From positions 1 to 42,310 of the forward strand of contig JBGQBE010000025.1 of the NCBI GenBank assembly GCA_041494685.1: DNA of 42,310 nt, read 5' to 3'. This document shows, in pieces, positions 1 through 11,494 of the stretch (within the stretch, counting starts at the first letter, position 1; every line of letters starts with the position of its first letter). This DNA comes from Dehalococcoidia bacterium. Lineage in GTDB: Bacteria; Chloroflexota; Dehalococcoidia; DSTF01; JACRBR01. The position numbers and the translations under genes are program-made. The notes beneath the pieces are model-generated. The model did not search any database. It was not told where the DNA came from and saw nothing but the letters and a program-made list of their open reading frames with translations.

Positions 1-135
1 CTATCAGAGCAACGCAGAACGCCTCGCAGCCCTGCCCGGCTTCCTCCAGGCGTACAATGGCGATCGCCCACACACCGCACTCGGCGGTCTCCCGCCGCTC
101 TCGCGGATCTGTCAATAACGTCCGTGGGAACTACA
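1..135 (+). mobile_element. Right end of an IS481-family insertion sequence (transposase C-terminus 2-118, element end ...AACTACA at 135)
   Basis: Frame 2 reads YQSNAERLAALPGFLQAYNGDRPHTALGGLPPLSRICQ* (stop 116-118), the typical IS481 C-terminal YNxxRPHxALGxxPP motif. The element ends in ACA and is followed by GCTAGC (136-141), matching the NCTAGN target of IS481 elements. Not in the ORF track. Confidence 0.85.
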
Positions 136-261
136 GCTAGCCTCGGGCCCGACGCCCTCCGCGGACCGCCGCAGCGACTGACTCTCGTTGGAGCCTGCAC
201 TTCTCGATCAACCCTCTGCTCAGTAAGCAGATGGTCGCAGAATTCGGGCCCAGAGGCGAAG

Positions 262-283
262 GCCCCGGACACGCGTCCGGGGC
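262..283. terminator. GC-rich hairpin, possible intrinsic terminator
   Basis: GCCCCGGAC-acgc-GTCCGGGGC 9-bp perfect stem; U-tract is weak on both strands. Confidence 0.35.
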
Positions 284-398
284 TTCCATATAGTGAGGGG
301 GGACTTGGAGCGGGAAGCAGACGGGTGCCGCCGGAGGGGCGCCGCCCGACGGTCACCGGGGCCTTCACCGGCGACCCCTGGCCCGCGGTGCCGCGCGC

Positions 399-420
399 GT
401 TGCTGTCACCGTTGCTGTCA
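399..420. repeat. GTTGCTGTCA direct repeats (399-408, 411-420; third copy 628-637), putative integrase arm-type sites
   Basis: Three exact copies of a 10-mer flank the att copy at 479-523 on both sides. Confidence 0.55.
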
Positions 421-478
421 TCCACGGCGCGGGAGGGGCGATCTGACGCGCAAGCGGCCCAGTTTCGATCCTGAGAAG

Positions 479-523
479 TGGCACGCCCGGAGGGATTCGA
501 ACCCCCGACCCTCGGTTCCGAAG
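479..523 (-). repeat. att site: duplicated 3' part of tRNA-Arg(UCG)
   Basis: 45 bp identical to 31719-31763 except one mismatch (483 A vs 31723 G). Covers the anticodon loop through CCA; the 5' half of the tRNA is absent. Confidence 0.95.
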
Positions 524-643
524 GTCGTATCGTTCCGTACGTCACCGTCCGTACCCGTCCGTCTACGCGTACACCAGCATACTCAAATTCCATATCCGTC
601 CGCGCCTGTGCGCACTCGTCCGCCCGGGTTGCTGTCAACAGGC

Positions 644-1571
644 TCACACGCCGATCGCCGCGGCCACCTTCCCCCAGCTCGCGTCAGCTTCGCCTTCCAA
701 CCGCCGGAGGTAGATCGAAATCACCTGCAGCGACGAGTGGTCGAGGAAGCGGCTGACGCTCTCGATGCTCTCCCCGGCGTCTCGCCGGAGCTTGGCAGCC
801 GAGTGGCGGAAGATGTGCACGCCGGCGAGCGGCAGGGTCCCCGCCTTCAGGTAGCGGCGCAGGTTCCCGTAGAACGTCCCCGACGTGACGCCTCTGTCGC
901 CCGCGCTGGACGGCCGCAGCGAAGCCTCCGGGGGCATGGCCGCGATGTCCCGCCCGAAGGCCGCCAGGGCCCGCCGTGAGCGCCACGTACGCGGGCTGTG
1001 GCAGCTCCCGCTTGCCCTGCTTGTTCCCCTTGCCACGGTAGCGGTACCAGATGCGTTCGTCCTCCTGCGTGAGGTCGCCCGCGGTCATGTTCAGCACTTC
1101 AACTCGGCGCCGGCCGGTGAGCGTCAGCGTGAGGATGATCGCCCGGTCCCTCAGGCCGACCGGCGTCTCGGGGATCACGGCGAGCAGCTTGCGGATGTCG
1201 TCGGCGGTGAGGCCCTTCGGCGGGGCGACCTGGACGCGCGGGCGTTCGAGCGCGTCGCACGGGTTGGACGAGACGACGTCCATGCGGATCAGGAAGCGGT
1301 AGAAGCTGCTCAGGCAGGCGAGCCGCGCGCCGATGGTGACGGACGAGGGCTGCTTGCCGGAGAGCCCGACGCCGTACCCCCAGGCGAAGACCTCGGGGCT
1401 GGTGACGCGGTCGGGCGGCTTGCCGACGCTGGCGAAGAAGTGCTGCAGCATACGGCTGTAGCCCTCAACGGTGCGCCGACTACCGGAGCGTCGCTCCTTC
1501 TCGGCGAGGAACGCGTAGAGGCTGCGTTCCCGGACCTCGGCGGTGTTGTCGAACGTGGCGATCGTCTGCAT
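644..1571 (-). pseudogene. XerC/D-like tyrosine recombinase/integrase with +1 frameshift at ~970-972
   Basis: ORF 684-1571 has the N-terminal SAM-like region, RDRAI..TGRR and GKGNK. ORF 644-1036 has HIFRHS, LDH and the catalytic Y. Removing one base from CCC 970-972 joins them (YVALTAALAAFGR). Confidence 0.85.
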
Positions 1572-1681
1572 GGTGACGCCCCCTCCTGGAAGGGCGTCAC
1601 CATATTGGCTCTCACGCGGACACTATCAAGTCCGCCAGCGCGTGACGATGGTATCCTGCTTTCGCTGGAGGCGAGGAACAC

Positions 1682-1933
1682 GTGAGCGGACGCAGACGAC
1701 CCAAGCCGGTGGGCATCGCTCCAGGTAGCCGCATCACGCTGCGACAAGGAGCCTTTGACACTTCACGGCAGCCGCACCTCCACGCTCATGCGCTGCACGG
1801 CGACCTTGGCACCGTCGTCGAAGGGCGCCATGCCGCTTGGCCTGGCTGGCTTCATGTCAGGTTTGACGATTGCCCAACGGTCCATCGACTGGCGGAAAAC
1901 GAGGTCTCATTGAATCGGCGCGCAAAGACGTAG
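1682..1933 (+). CDS. Small hypothetical protein (83 aa), possibly SH3-like beta fold
   Basis: GTG start after AGGA, divergent from the integrase; GTVVE...WLHVRFDD beta-strand pattern. Confidence 0.4.
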   Translation: MSGRRRPKPVGIAPGSRITLRQGAFDTSRQPHLHAHALHGDLGTVVEGRHAAWPGWLHVRFDDCPTVHRLAENEVSLNRRAKT

Positions 1934-1998
1934 CACTCGTCCTCGCTGGGCCGTCGCCCGACGTGCGCACCATGACTGCGTTGTGTTGGCCGATACCG

Positions 1999-3972
1999 TC
2001 AAGGGGCTGTGTGGCGGATTTCAGTAAGCTCCTCGACCACAACCGAAGCGCTCTCCGGTCGCTGGTCGGACGCCTTTGCGAGCATACGCAGGATCAGCGC
2101 GTCGAGCGACGGCGGTACCGCGGCGTTGTGCTCTGACGGAGCGACGGGGGCCGCATGGACGTGCTGCGAGGTCACGGCGGCCGTGCTGTCTCCGACGAAC
2201 GGCGGCCGCCCTGTCACCAGTTCGTACAGCATGGCCCCAAGCGCGTAGAGGTCGGTGCGTGCGTCGGTCTCCTGGCCGAGCGCCTGCTCTGGCGACATGT
2301 ACGACGCCGTACCCATGACAACGCCTGCCATGGTGAGACGCGAGCGGTCCATTGCGAGGGCCAGGCCGAAGTCGCCCAGCTTCGCCTCGCGATCCTCACC
2401 GAGGAGCACGTTTCCGGGTTTCAGATCGCGATGGATGATGCCGCGTTTGTGGACCACGGCCAGAGCGGAGGCGATGCCCGAACCGATTGAAAGCGCACGG
2501 CTGATCGACAGCGATCCCCCGGCCGCCCGCAGTTCCTGCTTCAGGTCGCCGCCGGGCACGTACTCGTAGACAATGTACGGTCGGCCCTCGTCTTCGCCGA
2601 CGTCGAAGACGGTCACGATGTTGGGATGCGCCCCCAGACGCGCCATCGCCTGCCCCTCGCGCTGAAGACGGAAGCGATCCTCCGGCTCCAGGAGCGCAGT
2701 CTTGATCAGTGCGAACGCGCAGTCGCGGTCGAGTGTCAGGTCGTGCACGAGATATACGATCTTCTGGCCGCCCTCGCCCAGCGCCCTGCGCACCATATAG
2801 CGGCCGCCCGCCAGGGTCCTCCCGGTGCTCGGGGCGATCACCGTCGCGCCGTCGACCGGGCGCTCCTTCAAGTCGACGATTCTGTACGCGGTCACTGGTT
2901 TGAGGATGCCTTTGAGCATAAACTCGCCGGCTGGCTCGACGTCCAACCCCTGTTCGACCGCGGCGTAAACACGCTGACTCAGGAGAATCTGTCCGCTTGC
3001 CGCCTCATCGCAGAGGCGCGAGGCCAGGTTGACGACGTTGCCGATCACCCCGTAGTCGCGACGTCCTTCAAACCCGATCTCGCCCAGCGTCGCATATCCG
3101 AAATCGATACCGACGCCAAAGCCGAGGTCGTGCCCGCGTTTCCCCCAGGCACGGAGCATCTCTTCCATGCGGTCTCTCATCGACACGGCCAACCGCACAG
3201 CTTGAGCGGCCGGCTCCGGACAGGGAAGAGGGTCGTTGAAGAAGACCATCAAGCCGTCGCCCTCGAAGAACCCAACTGTCGCCTCGGCAGCGGAGATCAG
3301 CGCCCCCATGGCCTCGTGATACTCACCAAGGACGGCCATCACTTCTTCGGGTTCCGACCTCTCGCTGAACCCCGTGAAGCCGCGCAAATCGCAGAAGACG
3401 ACAGCCACCCGACGCCGGTGGCTGCGCAGCATCGTCTCGTCGCCGGAGGAGACAAGAACATCGGCGATCTGTGGCGAGAGGAAGCGACGCAGCCGGCCCA
3501 TGCGCTCCAACTCGCGAAGCTGCTGTTGCACGCGGTCTTCGAGCGTCCGGTTCAACTCCGCGAGTTCGGCCGCTTGCGTACGAATGACGTCGTAGTACTG
3601 CTTCACGCGCAGCAGCGATCCGACGCGCGCCAGTAGCTCCGCCTTATCGAACGGCTTAGCGATGAAGTCGTCGGCGCCGGCCTCGAGCGCCTTGAGTTTT
3701 TCCTGATCGCCGCTGGCGGTGATCATCACCACCGGGAGTGCGCGTGTCGCTGGATCGTTGCGCAGCCTGCGACAGACCTCGTAGCCGTCCATCTCCGGCA
3801 TCAGGATGTCGAGGAGGATCAGGTCGGGTCTTTCGCGGCCGATCAGCTCAAGCGCGTCGCGGCCAGATGTCGCCGGCAGCACGGTGTAGTTGCGGGGGGC
3901 AAGGACGGCTTCCAGGAGCCTGATGTTCTGGGGCGTGTCGTCGACCACGACGATCTTCGGCTGCGAGTCCAT
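1999..3972 (-). CDS. Receiver - class III nucleotidyl cyclase - Hanks-type Ser/Thr kinase fusion
   Basis: REC (VVDD, LLDILMP, KPF); cyclase (FCDLRGFT, EGDG, DYGVIGNVVNLASRL); kinase (GEGGQKIVY, HRDLKPGN, DFG, GTASYMSPE, DLYALG). Start set at ATG 3972, just after the upstream stop. Confidence 0.9.
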   Translation of the reverse strand: MDSQPKIVVVDDTPQNIRLLEAVLAPRNYTVLPATSGRDALELIGRERPDLILLDILMPEMDGYEVCRRLRNDPATRALPVVMITASGDQEKLKALEAGADDFIAKPFDKAELLARVGSLLRVKQYYDVIRTQAAELAELNRTLEDRVQQQLRELERMGRLRRFLSPQIADVLVSSGDETMLRSHRRRVAVVFCDLRGFTGFSERSEPEEVMAVLGEYHEAMGALISAAEATVGFFEGDGLMVFFNDPLPCPEPAAQAVRLAVSMRDRMEEMLRAWGKRGHDLGFGVGIDFGYATLGEIGFEGRRDYGVIGNVVNLASRLCDEAASGQILLSQRVYAAVEQGLDVEPAGEFMLKGILKPVTAYRIVDLKERPVDGATVIAPSTGRTLAGGRYMVRRALGEGGQKIVYLVHDLTLDRDCAFALIKTALLEPEDRFRLQREGQAMARLGAHPNIVTVFDVGEDEGRPYIVYEYVPGGDLKQELRAAGGSLSISRALSIGSGIASALAVVHKRGIIHRDLKPGNVLLGEDREAKLGDFGLALAMDRSRLTMAGVVMGTASYMSPEQALGQETDARTDLYALGAMLYELVTGRPPFVGDSTAAVTSQHVHAAPVAPSEHNAAVPPSLDALILRMLAKASDQRPESASVVVEELTEIRHTAP

Positions 3973-3973
3973 G

Positions 3974-4360
3974 CTATACCCCCCGGCGGGCAACCTCGCA
4001 CTGCTGCCGTATGAGCTCAGGGAATCGGCGGATGTCGATAGGCTTCGTCAGGTAGCCGTCGAAGCCGGAGGCCAGGAACCGGTCACGGTCGTCGCGCATG
4101 GCGAAGGCGGTAAGCGCCACCACGCGGAGCGCCGCCGTGGCCGGTTCGCCCCTCAGCCGGCCCAGAGCCGTGACGCCGTCCATGTCGGGCAGTTGGATAT
4201 CCATGAGGATGAGGTCCGGCAAGTGCTCCGTCGCGAGCGCGATAGCGTCGTGCGCCGTCTCCGCTTCGAGCGTACGGTAACCATTGAACTGCAGGATATC
4301 GCGTACGAGCTTCAGGTTCTTCTCGTTATCCTCGACGACGAGGATCAGCTCACCCGCCAT
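3974..4360 (-). CDS. Single-domain response regulator (DivK/CheY-like)
   Basis: LVVEDN, LMDIQLP, ALTA, KPID motifs. Confidence 0.92.
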   Translation of the reverse strand: MAGELILVVEDNEKNLKLVRDILQFNGYRTLEAETAHDAIALATEHLPDLILMDIQLPDMDGVTALGRLRGEPATAALRVVALTAFAMRDDRDRFLASGFDGYLTKPIDIRRFPELIRQQCEVARRGV

Positions 4361-4363
4361 GCC

Positions 4364-6820
4364 TCACGCAACCTCTCGCTGACACAAGCGCCGCACGAGC
4401 TCGACAAACTCGACCCGGCTGAACTCCGCCTTGCGCGCGAGGTGACTAATGTGGGAATTCAGCCGCTCTTTCTCCTTCTGGCCGATGCTCTTTGACGTCA
4501 GCACCACAATGGGGATCTCCGCCGTCGCAAGGTTGCCGTGCAGACGCTCGGCTGCCGTGAAGCCGTCCATCTCCGGCATCAGCAGGTCCAGGATGATCAG
4601 CGCGGGCCGTTCAGACTCCGCCTTCATTATCCCTTCTTCGCCGCCCGTCGCGCGCAGGACGGTGAATCCGGCGGGGACGAGGATGGTCTCGATCAGCTCC
4701 AGCGCAAGCGGATCGTCGTCGATCGCCAGCACCTTGCATGGCGCGTCGGGGCCCCGTCCGTCCGCCGTAAAGCGCCGCAGCGTGGCGAGCAGTTCGTCGC
4801 GGTTGACCGGCTTCACCAGATAATCCGCCGCGCCCAACGCGATGCCTTTGCCGCGCTCATCGAGCATGGAGACGATGATCACCGGGATGTCCGCCGTGCT
4901 GCTGTCGCCCTTGATCTGCGTGAGGAAGTCCCAGCCATCAAGGCGCGGGAGCGAGATGTCGAGCGTGATGCCCGACGGGTGCAGGCTGCGCGCCATCTCC
5001 AGCCCTTCCTCGCCATCGCGGGCGACGGACACGTTGAAGCCCGCGCCGCTGATGTAGATCGTCAGCAGGTCGATCGCCGCCTGGTCGTCCTCGACGAGCA
5101 GGATGGTGGCGCCGCCGACGGTCGGCTCCGGCTCCGGGCCAATCGCCGGGGCGGGTGCCGGCGGGGACGGGCGTCGCGTTATGTCGTGCGATTTGAAGCT
5201 GGATCGGGGTTCGTTTCGTAATTTCGCTTTTTCGGGGACCACGGATTGGACAGACGCTTCCGTCTCGGCCGGACGGCGCACCGGCAGCCGGAAGGTGAAG
5301 GTGCTGCCGACGCCAAGTTCGCTCTCGACCCAGATCCGGCCGCCGTGCAGCTCGACGAATTTCTTGGCCAGCGCGAGGCCTAACCCCGTCCCTTCCCGCT
5401 TCTGGGCGTCGGGTTGAGAGGCCTGCTGAAATTCTTCGAAGATGCGCTCCTGGTCGTCGGGCGCGATGCCGGTGCCCGTGTCGCGGACGGCCACCTCGAG
5501 CTCGCCGTCCACGAGCCGCGCCGACGTATCGATGCGGCCGCCTTCGGGCGTGAACTTCACAGCGTTGGAGAGCAGGTTGAAGACGACCGCCTTCACTTTG
5601 CGCTCGTCGGCCTCGATGACGCCGCTGTTCGGGTCGACCTCCAGCCCGAGCGCGATCCTGTGACGCCCTGCCCGCTCGCGCGACATGCCCAGGCAACTCT
5701 CCAGCGTCTCGGCGACCGACAGCGCGCCGAGCTCGAGTTCCATTCTCCCCGCCTCGACCTTCGAGAGGTCGAGGATGTCATTGATCAGCAACAACAGCTG
5801 CTTCCCTGACGCAACGATGTCCTGCAGGTACTCGTCCTGCTTCTCGTTCAGCTCGCCGAACATGCGCTCCTGCAACACCTCGGAGAAGCCGATGATCGCG
5901 TTCAGCGGCGTGCGCAGCTCGTGCGACATGCTCGCCAGGAACTCGGATTTATGGCGGCTCGCCAACTCGAGCTCCCGGTAGAGCCGCCCCAGCTCGCCGC
6001 TCATGCGGTTGAGGTTCGCCGCCAGCGCGCCCAGCTCGTCGCGGTTCGGCACCTGCACACGATGCGAGAAGTCGCCGGATGCGACCTTCTCCAAGTGCGC
6101 GCCCATCCGCCTGACCGACCCGCTGAGCGAAGACGCGATGGCGTAGCCAAGGACGAGTGCGAGCGCGATGCTGCCCGCCGCGAATCCGATGACGATCCAG
6201 CGCGACGTCCCGTAGGCATCGCTGTTCTGTGCGATCGTCGTCACCATGTCCGACTCGGCCGTGTTCACCAGCTCGTTGGTACGCAGCGCGAGCCGGTCCG
6301 CCAGCGGTCGCGCCTGCGTCCTCAGCAGGTCCTGCGCCTCGGCGATCTTGCCGTCGCGCACAAGTTCGACGACCTGAACCATCATTTTGCCGAAATCGCC
6401 GTAGTCCTTATCGATCTGGCCCAGCAGCTCCGTCTCGTGCGGCCCGATCTGGTCTTTCGTTACCAGCTGGAGGCGGTCGAAGTTATAGGTCGACTCCTTG
6501 AGCTGCCGCAGCGTCGAGTCGAGCGTCTCGGCGTCGGAAGCGGAGAACGCCGACGCGACGAGATAGAGCTGGTTGGTGGCATCGTTCTGGACTGCCCGGT
6601 ACGCGGAGACCTTCCGCTGGAGCGCGCCCAAATGCTCGGCGCGGTCGTTCGCCTTGCTGAGTACCTGCAGGCCGGCGGCGCCCACCGCGATGAGGAGCAG
6701 CACCATCGCCAGGAACGCCGCCGCGAGCTTGCCGTAGATCGGCACCGGAACGCGTGCGACCAGCCAGCCGGGCCATTCGGCCGGCGCCATGCCCCCGCGG
6801 CGTCCCTCCGTTGCGTTCAC
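4364..6820 (-). CDS. Hybrid sensor histidine kinase (TM - helical sensor - TM - HAMP - HisKA - HATPase - REC - REC)
   Basis: MSHELRTPLN H-box, NLLSNAVKF, DTGTGI and GTGLGL boxes; two receiver domains with intact Asp; start overlaps the upstream SBP stop (GTGA). Confidence 0.93.
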   Translation of the reverse strand: MNATEGRRGGMAPAEWPGWLVARVPVPIYGKLAAAFLAMVLLLIAVGAAGLQVLSKANDRAEHLGALQRKVSAYRAVQNDATNQLYLVASAFSASDAETLDSTLRQLKESTYNFDRLQLVTKDQIGPHETELLGQIDKDYGDFGKMMVQVVELVRDGKIAEAQDLLRTQARPLADRLALRTNELVNTAESDMVTTIAQNSDAYGTSRWIVIGFAAGSIALALVLGYAIASSLSGSVRRMGAHLEKVASGDFSHRVQVPNRDELGALAANLNRMSGELGRLYRELELASRHKSEFLASMSHELRTPLNAIIGFSEVLQERMFGELNEKQDEYLQDIVASGKQLLLLINDILDLSKVEAGRMELELGALSVAETLESCLGMSRERAGRHRIALGLEVDPNSGVIEADERKVKAVVFNLLSNAVKFTPEGGRIDTSARLVDGELEVAVRDTGTGIAPDDQERIFEEFQQASQPDAQKREGTGLGLALAKKFVELHGGRIWVESELGVGSTFTFRLPVRRPAETEASVQSVVPEKAKLRNEPRSSFKSHDITRRPSPPAPAPAIGPEPEPTVGGATILLVEDDQAAIDLLTIYISGAGFNVSVARDGEEGLEMARSLHPSGITLDISLPRLDGWDFLTQIKGDSSTADIPVIIVSMLDERGKGIALGAADYLVKPVNRDELLATLRRFTADGRGPDAPCKVLAIDDDPLALELIETILVPAGFTVLRATGGEEGIMKAESERPALIILDLLMPEMDGFTAAERLHGNLATAEIPIVVLTSKSIGQKEKERLNSHISHLARKAEFSRVEFVELVRRLCQREVA

Positions 6821-7899
6821 GCTACTGCCAACTCCCGCTTGATCTGCTCCAGGTAGCGCCAGTCCGTGGCGCGGGCGATCAGCTCATCCGGCGTGCTCTT
6901 AACGAGCCCCGCCTCGTTGAGCCGCAGCGCATAGAATCGCACGGTGTCCTCGGGGTTGAACTCCCGCCAGGCGGTGTACGATAACCCGGCGAATGTATCG
7001 AGCGTGCTATCGTAGTTCGACTCGTAGCCTTTGTCTACGAGGTAACGAGCGGCGCGCTCCGGTTCCTTAGCGCACAGGTCGGTTGCCTTCAAGATGGCGC
7101 GCAGTGCGCGCTTCGTCGCTGCGGGGTGCTTCTCTACGAAGTCTCTGTTTCCCGCAGCCATGCAGCAGAAGTACTGCGTCCACGGAGGGTCCATCATAGT
7201 GTCGAGGACGACGTGCCCGATGTTCTGGCTCCGGAACAGCATCGACACAGGGGGTGGCAGGAGAAACACGTCAATCGTGCCCGCCAAGAACGCCTGCACG
7301 AAGTCGTTCGGGCTCAGCTCAACGAACTCAACCTCGTTGTTGATATCGATGCCGACGAACGCCAGAAGCGACGCCATGAAGAGGTAAGACGGATCGGTCG
7401 CATCTCGCTTCTCGATCCAGATTCTCTTTCCTTTGAGGTCGCGCAGCGACTGCACCCGGTCGTTGCCGAACAGCTCCCAGCAGGTCTGGTGCACGCCGGC
7501 GAGAACCACGAGCTGGTCGCTCGTATCTAGCATGGCGGTCATTTGCTCCCCGCCGACGAAATGGATGTCTATCTCGTTCTTGGCGTTTTGGTGACCCACT
7601 GGGTCGTCGATGTACTGCACGGTGGTGAACCCTTCCTCCGGCAGGAAGAGTTCGGCGAGCTGGAACGGGGCCGAGCACACCCCAATAGCGGTCTTGCCGA
7701 GCCGGATCGTCGTCGTCTCCGGCGGCGGGTCGACGACGGCCCCGGGCGTGCTCGTCGGGCTGGCCTTGCTGCCGCCTGAGCCGCAGGCGCCGAGCAGCAG
7801 GACGCCTGCGCCAACGGCACCCGCGCTGGCGGCGACGCCCAGGAACTCGCGCCGGCTCAACGTCTGGGACTGGCGGACGGGGCTGATGTGGCTATCCAC
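6817..7899 (-). CDS. NitT/TauT (SsuA/NMT1-like) solute-binding lipoprotein with Tat signal, paralog 1
   Basis: SRREFLG twin-Arg motif, LLGAC lipobox, DLKGKRI, FVEKHPAATKRALRA; AGGAGG RBS before GTG. Confidence 0.85.
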   Translation of the reverse strand: MDSHISPVRQSQTLSRREFLGVAASAGAVGAGVLLLGACGSGGSKASPTSTPGAVVDPPPETTTIRLGKTAIGVCSAPFQLAELFLPEEGFTTVQYIDDPVGHQNAKNEIDIHFVGGEQMTAMLDTSDQLVVLAGVHQTCWELFGNDRVQSLRDLKGKRIWIEKRDATDPSYLFMASLLAFVGIDINNEVEFVELSPNDFVQAFLAGTIDVFLLPPPVSMLFRSQNIGHVVLDTMMDPPWTQYFCCMAAGNRDFVEKHPAATKRALRAILKATDLCAKEPERAARYLVDKGYESNYDSTLDTFAGLSYTAWREFNPEDTVRFYALRLNEAGLVKSTPDELIARATDWRYLEQIKRELAVA

Positions 7900-7962
7900 G
7901 TCGGTCCTCCTTCTGCGATGCGCGCCGCCCCGCGATGCGCCCGCGCCGTCCCTCTGCTGGGT

Positions 7963-9108
7963 TCACGCTACCGCCAGTTCCCGCTTGATCTCGTTCAGGT
8001 AGCGCCAGTCCGTGGCGCGGGCGACCAACTCATCCGGCGTGCTCTTAACGAGCCCCGCCTCTTTGAGCCGCAACGCATGGAATCGCACGGTGTCTTCGGG
8101 GTTGAACTCCCGCCAAGCGCCGGACGACAGGTGCATCACTGCATGGAGCGTGTTGTCGTAGTCAAACGTCACGCCTTCAGCCGTCGTGAGGCCGTTGTCG
8201 ACGAGGTAGCGAGCGGCGCGCTCGGGCTCCCTGGCGCACAGGTCGGTTGCCTTCAGGATGGCGCGCAGTGCGCGCTTCGTCGCTGCGGGGTGCTTCTCTA
8301 CGAAGTCTCTGTTTCCCGTGACCATGCAGCAGAAGTACTGCGACCACGGAGCGTCCAGCATGCCGTTGAGGATGACGTGCCCGGTGTTCGTGTTCCGGAA
8401 CAGCGTCGAGAAAGGTTCTAACACGAGCACCGTGTCAATCGTGCCCGCCCGCAGCTGGTTAAATCCATCTGTCCCGCTCAGCTTGACGAATTCAACTTCA
8501 TGTTCGAGATCGATGCCGACGTATGCCAGCAGCGTCGCCATAAAGGTGTAAATCGGGTCGTTCGCGTCGGTGCTGGGGACCGAGATCCTCTTGCCCTTGA
8601 GGTCGTGCAGCGTCTGCACACGGTCGCTGGCGAACAGGTCGTAGCAGGTCGGGTAGATGCCGGCGAGGACCACGAGCGGTTGGCCCGCGTCTGCGGCGGT
8701 TGTCAGCGACGACATCAGGCTGGGACTGAAGTCTATCTCGCCCGCGGCAGTATGCCCTGCGCCGTGGTCGCCGCTCGCGACCTGGCAGGAACATCCAGTT
8801 TGCTGGGCGCCGTCGACCTGGACGTACTGCACGTCGGTGAACCCTTCCTCCGGCAGGAAGAGTGCGGCGAGATCGATCGGCGCCGCGCACATAGCGCCGG
8901 TCTTGGCGAGTCGGATCGTCGTCGTCTCCGGCGGCGGGTCGACGACGGCCCCCGGCGTGCTCGTCGGGCTGCCCTTGCTGCCGCCTGAGCCGCAGGCGCC
9001 GAGCAGCACCACGCCGGCGCCAACGGCGCCCGCGCTGACGGCGACGCCCAGGAACTCGCGCCGGCTCAACGTCTGGGACTGACGGACGGGTCTGAGGTGG
9101 CTATCCAT
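7963..9108 (-). CDS. NitT/TauT solute-binding lipoprotein with Tat signal, paralog 2
   Basis: N- and C-termini nearly identical to 6817-7899; central region divergent with a Cys/His-rich insert. Confidence 0.85.
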   Translation of the reverse strand: MDSHLRPVRQSQTLSRREFLGVAVSAGAVGAGVVLLGACGSGGSKGSPTSTPGAVVDPPPETTTIRLAKTGAMCAAPIDLAALFLPEEGFTDVQYVQVDGAQQTGCSCQVASGDHGAGHTAAGEIDFSPSLMSSLTTAADAGQPLVVLAGIYPTCYDLFASDRVQTLHDLKGKRISVPSTDANDPIYTFMATLLAYVGIDLEHEVEFVKLSGTDGFNQLRAGTIDTVLVLEPFSTLFRNTNTGHVILNGMLDAPWSQYFCCMVTGNRDFVEKHPAATKRALRAILKATDLCAREPERAARYLVDNGLTTAEGVTFDYDNTLHAVMHLSSGAWREFNPEDTVRFHALRLKEAGLVKSTPDELVARATDWRYLNEIKRELAVA

Positions 9109-10867: not shown

Positions 10868-11494
10868 TTACGTGGAATGGCGTTCGATTTTGTAACCAAC
10901 TCCGGGAACGCTCGCGATCCACTCATGCAAGGACGAGAGCTTCTGCTTCAATCGATGGACGACGCGATGCAGCATGTTGTACGTGTAGTTCCCCTTGCCC
11001 CAGATGGCCGTCCCCAACTCGTCTCGTGTGCACACTCTACCGTAGCGGGAGGTCAGCAGACTGAGGAGCTCGAACTCCTGCACTGACAGACGCACGTCCA
11101 CCTGCTGATCGCCAACCCACACCTCCCACGACGAGGAATCGCAGCGAATCGGGCAGTCGGCAGGCATCGGACGGAACGCCGTGGGTACGCCCTCCTGCGA
11201 AGCTGCGTCAAAGAACACGACAGATAGTTCGCCCATGGAGATCTCATCGCCAGAGGACAATAGCTGCATCTCGCTGATGCGACGGCCATTCACGTTCGTG
11301 CCGTTGGTGCTGCCCGTATCCACGACCATGTAACCAGACTCCGTCAATTCCAGGCGCGCATGTAGACGGGACATATAGCCGTACTCGAGCACGAGGTCAC
11401 AGGTGGGAGCGCGCCCGATGGTCGTGACCTTCTGCCTCAGTGGAAAGTCATGGTACTGACCCCCAGGGACCTGCACGACCAGTTTCGCGGTCAT
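10868..11494 (-). CDS. FHA domain + OmpR-type winged-helix transcription regulator
   Basis: FHA motifs IGR, SRLHA and GSTNGT; C-terminal QEFELL...RDEL...IWG...HRLKQKL...VPGVGY (Trans_reg_C). Confidence 0.9.
   Translation of the reverse strand: MTAKLVVQVPGGQYHDFPLRQKVTTIGRAPTCDLVLEYGYMSRLHARLELTESGYMVVDTGSTNGTNVNGRRISEMQLLSSGDEISMGELSVVFFDAASQEGVPTAFRPMPADCPIRCDSSSWEVWVGDQQVDVRLSVQEFELLSLLTSRYGRVCTRDELGTAIWGKGNYTYNMLHRVVHRLKQKLSSLHEWIASVPGVGYKIERHST

Follow-up and report, generated by a model that had tools for sequence, protein, structure and literature searches.

A clade of PknB-type bacterial kinases, mostly from Chloroflexota, with a WNK-style glycine-loop lysine and probable activity

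Introduction

Can a bacterial serine/threonine kinase that lacks the canonical catalytic lysine still be a working enzyme, and which residue would then hold ATP? The question is raised by a gene on contig JBGQBE010000025.1 of a Dehalococcoidia bacterium (Chloroflexota; assembly GCA_041494685.1), of which positions 1 to 42,310 of the forward strand were analyzed and are referred to here as the window. The gene encodes a fusion of a response-regulator receiver, a class III nucleotidyl cyclase and a Hanks-type Ser/Thr kinase. Its kinase domain has Ala where strand beta3 should carry the invariant Lys, and Lys in the glycine loop, where the eukaryotic WNK kinases have theirs. The original prediction, made from the letters of this DNA, was of an active kinase that had converged on the WNK arrangement and might even possess a WNK-like anion pocket. 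As set out below, our analysis supports the first part of this proposal and offers nothing for the second.

Among functional eukaryotic protein kinases, WNK is the only family without K72, and a parallel shift (Arg at position 55, Met at position 72) is described only for a subfamily of small-molecule kinases (Kannan et al., 2007, PMC1821047). In bacteria, no published Hanks-type kinase with a glycine-loop lysine was found in the full-text literature, the coverage of which did not extend to Kwon et al. 2019 or to the supplements of the 2025 atlas of bacterial serine/threonine kinases (10.1101/2025.01.12.632604). In those portions of the atlas preprint and of a 2025 pseudokinase review (PMC12599244) that were available to us, WNK appears only as a eukaryotic analogy and a bacterial family with a loop lysine is described in neither; a 2026 WNK review (PMC13686953) contains neither "bacteria" nor "prokaryot". 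What is said below on the authority of these two reviews, the atlas preprint and Kannan et al. (2007) likewise refers to the available portions of each.

Results

The lysine swap and its register

The fusion gene occupies 1999..3993 of the minus strand as an open frame of 664 aa from a TTG at 3993, with the stop codon at 1999..2001, and residue numbers are counted from that TTG. The database record of the protein (P0002) is 657 aa long, counted from the ATG at 3970..3972, and this ATG is the likely start of the gene. The kinase domain (residues 399-652, 2038..2799, minus strand; Pfam PF00069, 157.3 bits against a cut-off of 31.7) is the last domain, the protein ending 12 residues past it, and the range 1999-2810 to which the original prediction was attached comprises this domain, the C-terminal tail and the stop codon. 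Translation of the minus strand gives a glycine loop reading GEGGQKIVY (2752..2778), in which Lys411 (codon 2761..2763), the proposed ATP-anchoring lysine, stands at the third-Gly position. Strand beta3 reads CAFALIK (2701..2721), with Ala428 (2710..2712) at the canonical Lys position and Lys431 (2701..2703) three residues later. Glu446 of helix alphaC (2656..2658), the salt-bridge partner of the catalytic Lys, is present, as are the catalytic loop HRDLKPGN with Asp523 and Asn528 (2410..2433) and the DFG motif with Asp541 (2365..2373), directly preceded by Gly540. All of these motifs were read correctly in the original prediction, including the otherwise intact catalytic core. The domain therefore has every Hanks-type feature that was checked (profile match, kinase fold, Glu446, Asp523, Asn528 and Asp541) except for the VAIK Lys of beta3.

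Whether Ala428 truly occupies the position of the invariant Lys depends on the alignment. The best match of the kinase among all Protein Data Bank (PDB) chains searched with phmmer is PknB of Mycobacterium tuberculosis (E 8e-56), and the alignment is ungapped from the glycine loop through beta3: PknB "dvavKvl" stands over "dcafAli", which places the catalytic Lys (Lys40 of PknB, counted from this alignment) over Ala428, and the Ser of PknB "gfggmSev", at the third-Gly position, over Lys411. A profile hidden Markov model (HMM) built from the 333 canonical bacterial kinase domains collected in this analysis aligns to the query in the same ungapped manner and with high posterior, again with the invariant Lys over Ala428. 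From Lys411 to Ala428 the spacing is 17 residues, equal to that of the PknB equivalents. In the 333 canonical domains the Lys411 column is Gly in 255 (77%), Ala in 47, Ser in 18 and Lys in none; this column corresponds to the third Gly of GxGxxG and carries the number 55 in PKA.

The WNK glycine loop, as given in the original prediction, reads GRGSFKTVY. Position 55 is also where the WNK lysine has moved; this residue (K233 of WNK1) is required for catalysis and touches ATP as K72 does in other kinases (Kannan et al., 2007, PMC1821047), and the claim that the loop lysine stands in the WNK register is borne out. The defining pair of WNK features, a lysine at the third-Gly position and a residue other than lysine at beta3, is found here as Lys411 and Ala428. 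The register of the lysine swap is confirmed at the sequence level.

A single clade retains the swap

Homologs of the kinase domain were collected by a word-indexed search, from which the best 120 proteins were taken, and were pooled with the best 150 matches of an exhaustive search of representative proteins. The latter were mostly multi-kinase-domain proteins and served as canonical comparison rows, not as family members. Among the best 120 matches listed, and besides P0002 itself, eleven full-length proteins (P0004-P0014) have the same receiver-cyclase-kinase layout at 77-89% identity, to which a fragment (P0003) can be added, and dozens more match at 54-64% identity over the kinase domain in the company of other partners: an alpha/beta hydrolase, an AAA/STAND ATPase (PF13191), zinc ribbons, TPR or another cyclase. 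The named sources of the listed matches are Dehalococcoidia or Chloroflexota/Chloroflexi, save one "Myxococcota" record (P0102). Matches in named genomes divide in the same way, since all five at at least 57% identity are of the loop-lysine type and come from metagenome-assembled genomes (MAGs) of Dehalococcoidia or Chloroflexota, while all 78 at 46% identity or less are canonical and come from many phyla.

When phmmer was run on the pooled proteins, 502 kinase-domain rows were obtained from 259 proteins. A loop lysine is present in 124 of them, every one without a beta3 Lys and every one with the alphaC Glu, the HRD Asp, the catalytic Asn and the DFG Asp retained; no row has both lysines. Partial matches account for 64 rows gapped at all three sites, and 35 rows have neither lysine; by eye, most of these are rows whose alignment is shifted or degenerate domains from proteins with several kinases, together with one clade-like domain (P0078) that is considered in the Discussion.

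As distinct domains the pooled set comprises 476 sequences, 143 of the loop-lysine type and 333 canonical. The covariation named as a check in the original prediction is complete in this set: the beta3 Lys is missing from all 143 loop-lysine domains, and none of the 333 canonical domains has a loop lysine, a pattern beyond what chance would give. A FastTree phylogeny of the 476 domains requires one state change and joins the 143 into one clade with a support of 99. The same result was obtained in a quick IQ-TREE analysis of 98 rows from which the three trait columns had been dropped (one loop-lysine row in three by distance, plus 50 canonical rows, of which 25 were the nearest and 25 were drawn at random), with one state change and a Shimodaira-Hasegawa-like approximate likelihood ratio test (SH-aLRT) value of 99. 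In both trees, which were built without WNK sequences, the clade branches among bacterial kinases. The 143 cases of the swap count as a single evolutionary event, strictly retained since, and not as 143 separate ones.

Within the clade, Lys411 is kept in 143/143 domains (143/144 when P0078 is counted in the tree-based clade), and Glu446, Asp523, Asn528 and Asp541 are each present in 143/143. The beta3 position holds Ala in 90, Ser in 49, Cys in 2 and Gly in 2, all of them small residues. The clade is further set apart from canonical domains by Glu407, His417, Met450 (four residues past the alphaC Glu), Gly540 (just before DFG) and Pro646.

Structure and nearest relatives

The kinase domain was modeled with AlphaFold2 from an input alignment of 77 rows, all of them clade members, the sample holding no single-domain canonical proteins. 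The model has a mean predicted local distance difference test score (pLDDT) of 91.2 and a predicted template modeling score (pTM) of 0.90, and pLDDT values under 50 are confined to the activation loop (domain residues 165-170). PknB, PknA and Stk1 are its top Foldseek matches. By VIA-align, PknA (4ow8) has Z 34.5 and a root-mean-square deviation (rmsd) of 2.0 over 270 aligned residues, Stk1 (9ymt) has Z 33.5 and PknB (5u94) has Z 33.3; WNK1 (6cn9) stands only at rank 44 (Z 28.9, rmsd 2.3, 259 aligned), level with Aurora A and NEK7. The best PDB sequence matches by phmmer are PknB, StkP, PknA and PknE, and no WNK appears among the 60 best of 1894. Sequence identity to WNK1 is 26%, as compared with 36-42% for PknA/PknB, which is not what common descent with WNK would give. 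Because the nearest relatives are PknB, PknA and Stk1, with WNK1 no higher than rank 44, we regard the domain as a PknB-type kinase and its likeness to WNK as convergent, in agreement with the independent origin that had been predicted.

The likeness does not extend to the DFG motif. WNK kinases have DLG in place of DFG, and the kinase here reads GDFGLA. In WNK, a chloride site lies where the activation loop begins, and the placement of the lysine has been explained by a clash with that site (PMC13686953). With DFG where the WNK motif is DLG, nothing that we found supports the suggested WNK-like anion pocket.

Genomic context

Upstream of its kinase, the fusion protein has a response-regulator receiver domain (residues 14-124, 3622..3954, minus strand; Pfam PF00072, 106.7 bits, cut-off 30.2), the acceptor Asp of which was read by eye from the sequence, and a class III nucleotidyl cyclase domain (residues 194-370, 2884..3414, minus strand; Pfam PF00211, 72.9 bits, cut-off 21.9). 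The best solved matches of the cyclase are CyaB of Pseudomonas aeruginosa (3r5g, E 4e-32) and Cya2 (2w01, E 8e-25), and the two metal-binding Asp and the transition-state Asn/Arg align with theirs. One further position specifies the base in such cyclases, being Lys in adenylyl cyclases and Glu in guanylyl cyclases. CyaB has Lys there and Cya2 has Glu, whereas this domain carries Phe and, like Cya2, has Gly at the paired position. With Phe as the base-specifying residue, the sequence gives no clear indication of the cyclase substrate.

The kinase gene appears to lie in an operon on the minus strand. The first signaling gene of that operon encodes a hybrid histidine kinase (4HB_MCP sensor, HAMP, HisKA, HATPase and two receivers; 4364..6820), which is followed by the gene of a single-domain receiver protein (3974..4360); between the stop codon of the latter and the ATG of the kinase gene the distance is 1 nt. 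The genes immediately upstream of the hybrid histidine kinase (6817..9108, minus strand) encode a pair of paralogous NMT1/THI5-like solute-binding proteins of 360 and 381 aa, with N-termini that resemble twin-arginine signals. The start of the hybrid histidine kinase gene overlaps the end of the nearer binding-protein gene, and the two proteins may be co-sensors. Farther upstream, a 208-aa protein with an FHA domain followed by an OmpR-type winged helix (Trans_reg_C; 10868..11494, minus strand) is a candidate phospho-threonine reader and likely a phospho-threonine-dependent transcription factor. In one relative (contig G001:C31), an 88% kinase ortholog is accompanied on its own strand by an FHA match just as strong, at a distance of about 9 kb, as is seen here. 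Around an 88% ortholog in a named Dehalococcoidia MAG (L032), the open frames match the neighbors in size and order.

The genome of the window (97.6% complete, 1.3% contamination) has a single Pkinase match above cut-off, the fusion gene, and also encodes two FHA-domain proteins, one of which is the winged-helix protein just described. A survey of 20 relatives gave 27 kinase domains, distributed over 11 genomes. The loop-lysine type accounts for 22 of the 27, many of them in open frames of about 1,500 aa, and it is the only kinase match in five relatives (G004, G005, G007, G011 and G015). Of the five domains that are not of this type, four are canonical (L005, L015, L020 and L029) and one has Arg (L028). 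An FHA match lies within 10 kb of a loop-lysine kinase in four of the ten genomes with this type (G000, G001, G007 and G020).

At the start of the window, a phage-integrase-like gene appears to be split over two overlapping frames (644..1571, minus strand) and is probably frameshifted. The open reading frame at 684..1571 matches only the first 75 of the 172 positions of the Phage_integrase profile, and that at 644..1036 resembles by eye the C-terminal catalytic part of an integrase. No tRNA was detected beside it by ARAGORN in positions 1..2000.

Discussion

Loss of the beta3 lysine marks a kinase as a pseudokinase by the usual sequence criterion, and it is important to weigh how much the glycine-loop lysine changes that judgment. 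We consider that the domain is probably a working PknB-type Ser/Thr kinase that anchors ATP through Lys411, the solution of WNK reached independently in a clade found mostly in Chloroflexota, and would put the probability of this at about 0.68. The WNK-like interpretation is well supported by sequence, phylogeny and context, and the lysine swap, being clade-wide, makes a working enzyme likelier than a dead one. Several observations weigh on the other side. Under the sequence definition of a pseudokinase (at least one of the VAIK Lys, the HRD Asp and the DFG Asp missing), the absence of the VAIK Lys is enough to make this domain one, yet the definition leaves function undecided because WNK kinases also fall under it and are active. 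The perfect conservation of Lys411 stems partly from the way in which the class was defined, and the clade-like P0078 lacks it: its loop reads GEGGQH, with His in place of the lysine, Ser at beta3 and the other catalytic residues kept. P0078 may represent a genuine variant, an inactive copy or merely an error of sequencing. Across 21 genomes, which are kin and not independent, FHA and kinase are loosely linked: 8 genomes have both, 4 the kinase without FHA, 3 FHA without the kinase, and 6 have neither. Finally, the profile search found no PP2C or PP2C_2 phosphatase in the genome of the window and a SpoIIE match only below threshold, which is unusual for a live Ser/Thr phosphorylation system.

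If the domain were instead a pseudokinase, it would bind ATP or a partner without phosphate transfer, perhaps as a dimerization or scaffold module for the cyclase and receiver. The missing beta3 Lys is what one would expect of it, bacterial pseudokinase families without the VAIK Lys are on record (10.1101/2025.01.12.632604; PMC12599244), and the failure to find a PP2C-type phosphatase in this genome fits equally well. However, six of the seven described bacterial families have also lost the HRD Asp and several the DFG Asp (10.1101/2025.01.12.632604), whereas the clade described here keeps the Glu, both Asp and the Asn without exception, and it holds the loop lysine while diverging to about 50% identity. 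A regulatory pseudokinase should also have an active kinase to regulate, and the sole above-cut-off kinase of this genome, which is of the only type present in five relatives, leaves no such partner; FHA proteins, in turn, are encoded alongside it. A pseudokinase is unlikely on this evidence. Still less probable is a kinase whose activity depends on a dedicated lysine at neither site and which has kept Lys411 for another purpose, such as substrate or regulator binding or for closure of the glycine loop. The His of P0078 is what speaks for it, but the strict coupling of the loop lysine with loss of the beta3 Lys (no domain with both and, within the clade, none with neither save P0078) fits a functional replacement, as does the restriction of the beta3 position to small residues. 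It is also established kinase mechanism that the alphaC Glu requires a basic partner, and this Glu is invariant in the clade.

The remaining alternative accepts activity but assigns catalysis to another lysine. The original prediction had itself allowed that the Lys of ALIK might occupy the catalytic site; Lys431 lies three residues past the canonical beta3 position, and a hairpin three residues longer or a register-shifting bulge would have to bring it into place, the loop lysine having some other role. The letters ALIK do resemble VAIK/VALK, position 431 is basic in 136/143 clade members, and the length of the beta2-beta3 hairpin varies among kinases. Against this, the alignments to PknB and to the canonical profile stay ungapped although the match to the invariant Lys is thereby lost, and the loop-to-beta3 spacing is that of PknB. 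Residue 431 is Lys in 115 clade members, Arg in 21, Asn in 4, Cys in 2 and Gln in 1, and both the 7 non-basic and the 21 Arg members keep every other catalytic residue. A basic residue is also common at this place in canonical kinases that have their own beta3 Lys: among the phmmer-aligned rows with loop Gly and beta3 Lys, the residue three positions later is Arg in 66 and Lys in 12. In the AlphaFold2 model, DSSP assigns beta3 to domain residues 39-46, so that Lys431 (domain residue 47) comes just past the end of the strand, and an offset of three residues should put its side chain on the opposite face. Variation at residue 431 and the ungapped alignments make a catalytic ALIK lysine unlikely, and the full explanation, with its altered hairpin and a separate task for Lys411, is very unlikely.

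How might a kinase with Lys411 as its catalytic lysine work in this setting? Strand beta2 would supply the lysine by which the ATP phosphates are held and which forms a pair with Glu446 of helix alphaC, and the small Ala428 at beta3 would leave room for this lysine. A phosphorelay through the hybrid histidine kinase and the single receiver could end on the N-terminal receiver of the fusion protein, where phosphotransfer would change dimerization; this in turn may activate the cyclase dimer and let the kinase trans-autophosphorylate on its activation loop. FHA proteins, for example the FHA/winged-helix regulator 7 kb upstream, could then read the phospho-threonine. We infer this activation route as the most likely one because the kinase sits behind the receiver and the cyclase and its gene follows those of the hybrid histidine kinase and single receiver in the operon; the FHA link is likewise inferred. 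A more speculative extension, and a long shot, is that the relocation, as in WNK, freed a pocket beside DFG for an inhibitory anion or small ligand, in which case the clade kinases would be direct ion or osmotic sensors, joined in this protein with two-component and cyclic-nucleotide input.

If bacteria did arrive independently at the WNK solution, lysine relocation would be a repeatable evolutionary route, and a second and simpler system would become available to ask why the lysine moves, with room for a ligand and changed regulation as candidates. There would be a practical consequence as well, as automatic pseudokinase calls based on VAIK would give a wrong label to the principal Ser/Thr kinases of this Chloroflexota lineage, which in some of its genomes are the only ones.

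Comparison with known systems

Several known kinase groups share part of the arrangement. The bacterial pseudokinase families ActPs1-3, DYD, DLHK, GLW and CP1 also lack the VAIK Lys, but most of them lose the HRD Asp and/or the DFG Asp too, or replace the Lys by Arg (10.1101/2025.01.12.632604); a loop lysine is described for none of them in the available portion of the preprint, the supplementary family tables being outside this comparison. POMK/SGK196 has a glycine-loop lysine (PMC12599244), and the small-molecule kinase subfamily CAK-chloro has Arg at position 55 and Met at 72 (Kannan et al., 2007, PMC1821047). Both depart from the present domain, in which Glu and DFG are intact: in POMK the alphaC Glu is missing and the motif is DLD, and in CAK-chloro Phe takes the place of the Glu. 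Their substrates, moreover, are small molecules or sugars, whereas the domain here is of the protein-kinase type.

The closest likeness is to PknB, PknA and Stk1, with which the domain shares fold and sequence family (36-42% identity), the alphaC Glu, HRD, Asn and DFG, and an activation loop with Thr residues. It differs from PknB in having Ala for the beta3 Lys and Lys for the Ser at the third-Gly position, and in that transmembrane and PASTA parts are absent and the kinase is placed after a receiver and a cyclase. With WNK1-4 it has in common the loop lysine at the third-Gly position, a small residue in place of the beta3 Lys, and the retained alphaC Glu, HRD and catalytic core; it keeps DFG where WNK has DLG, and no domain follows the kinase. 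Relocation of this lysine was known before from WNK, and what appears to be new here is a clade of PknB-type bacterial kinases with a lysine of the WNK style.

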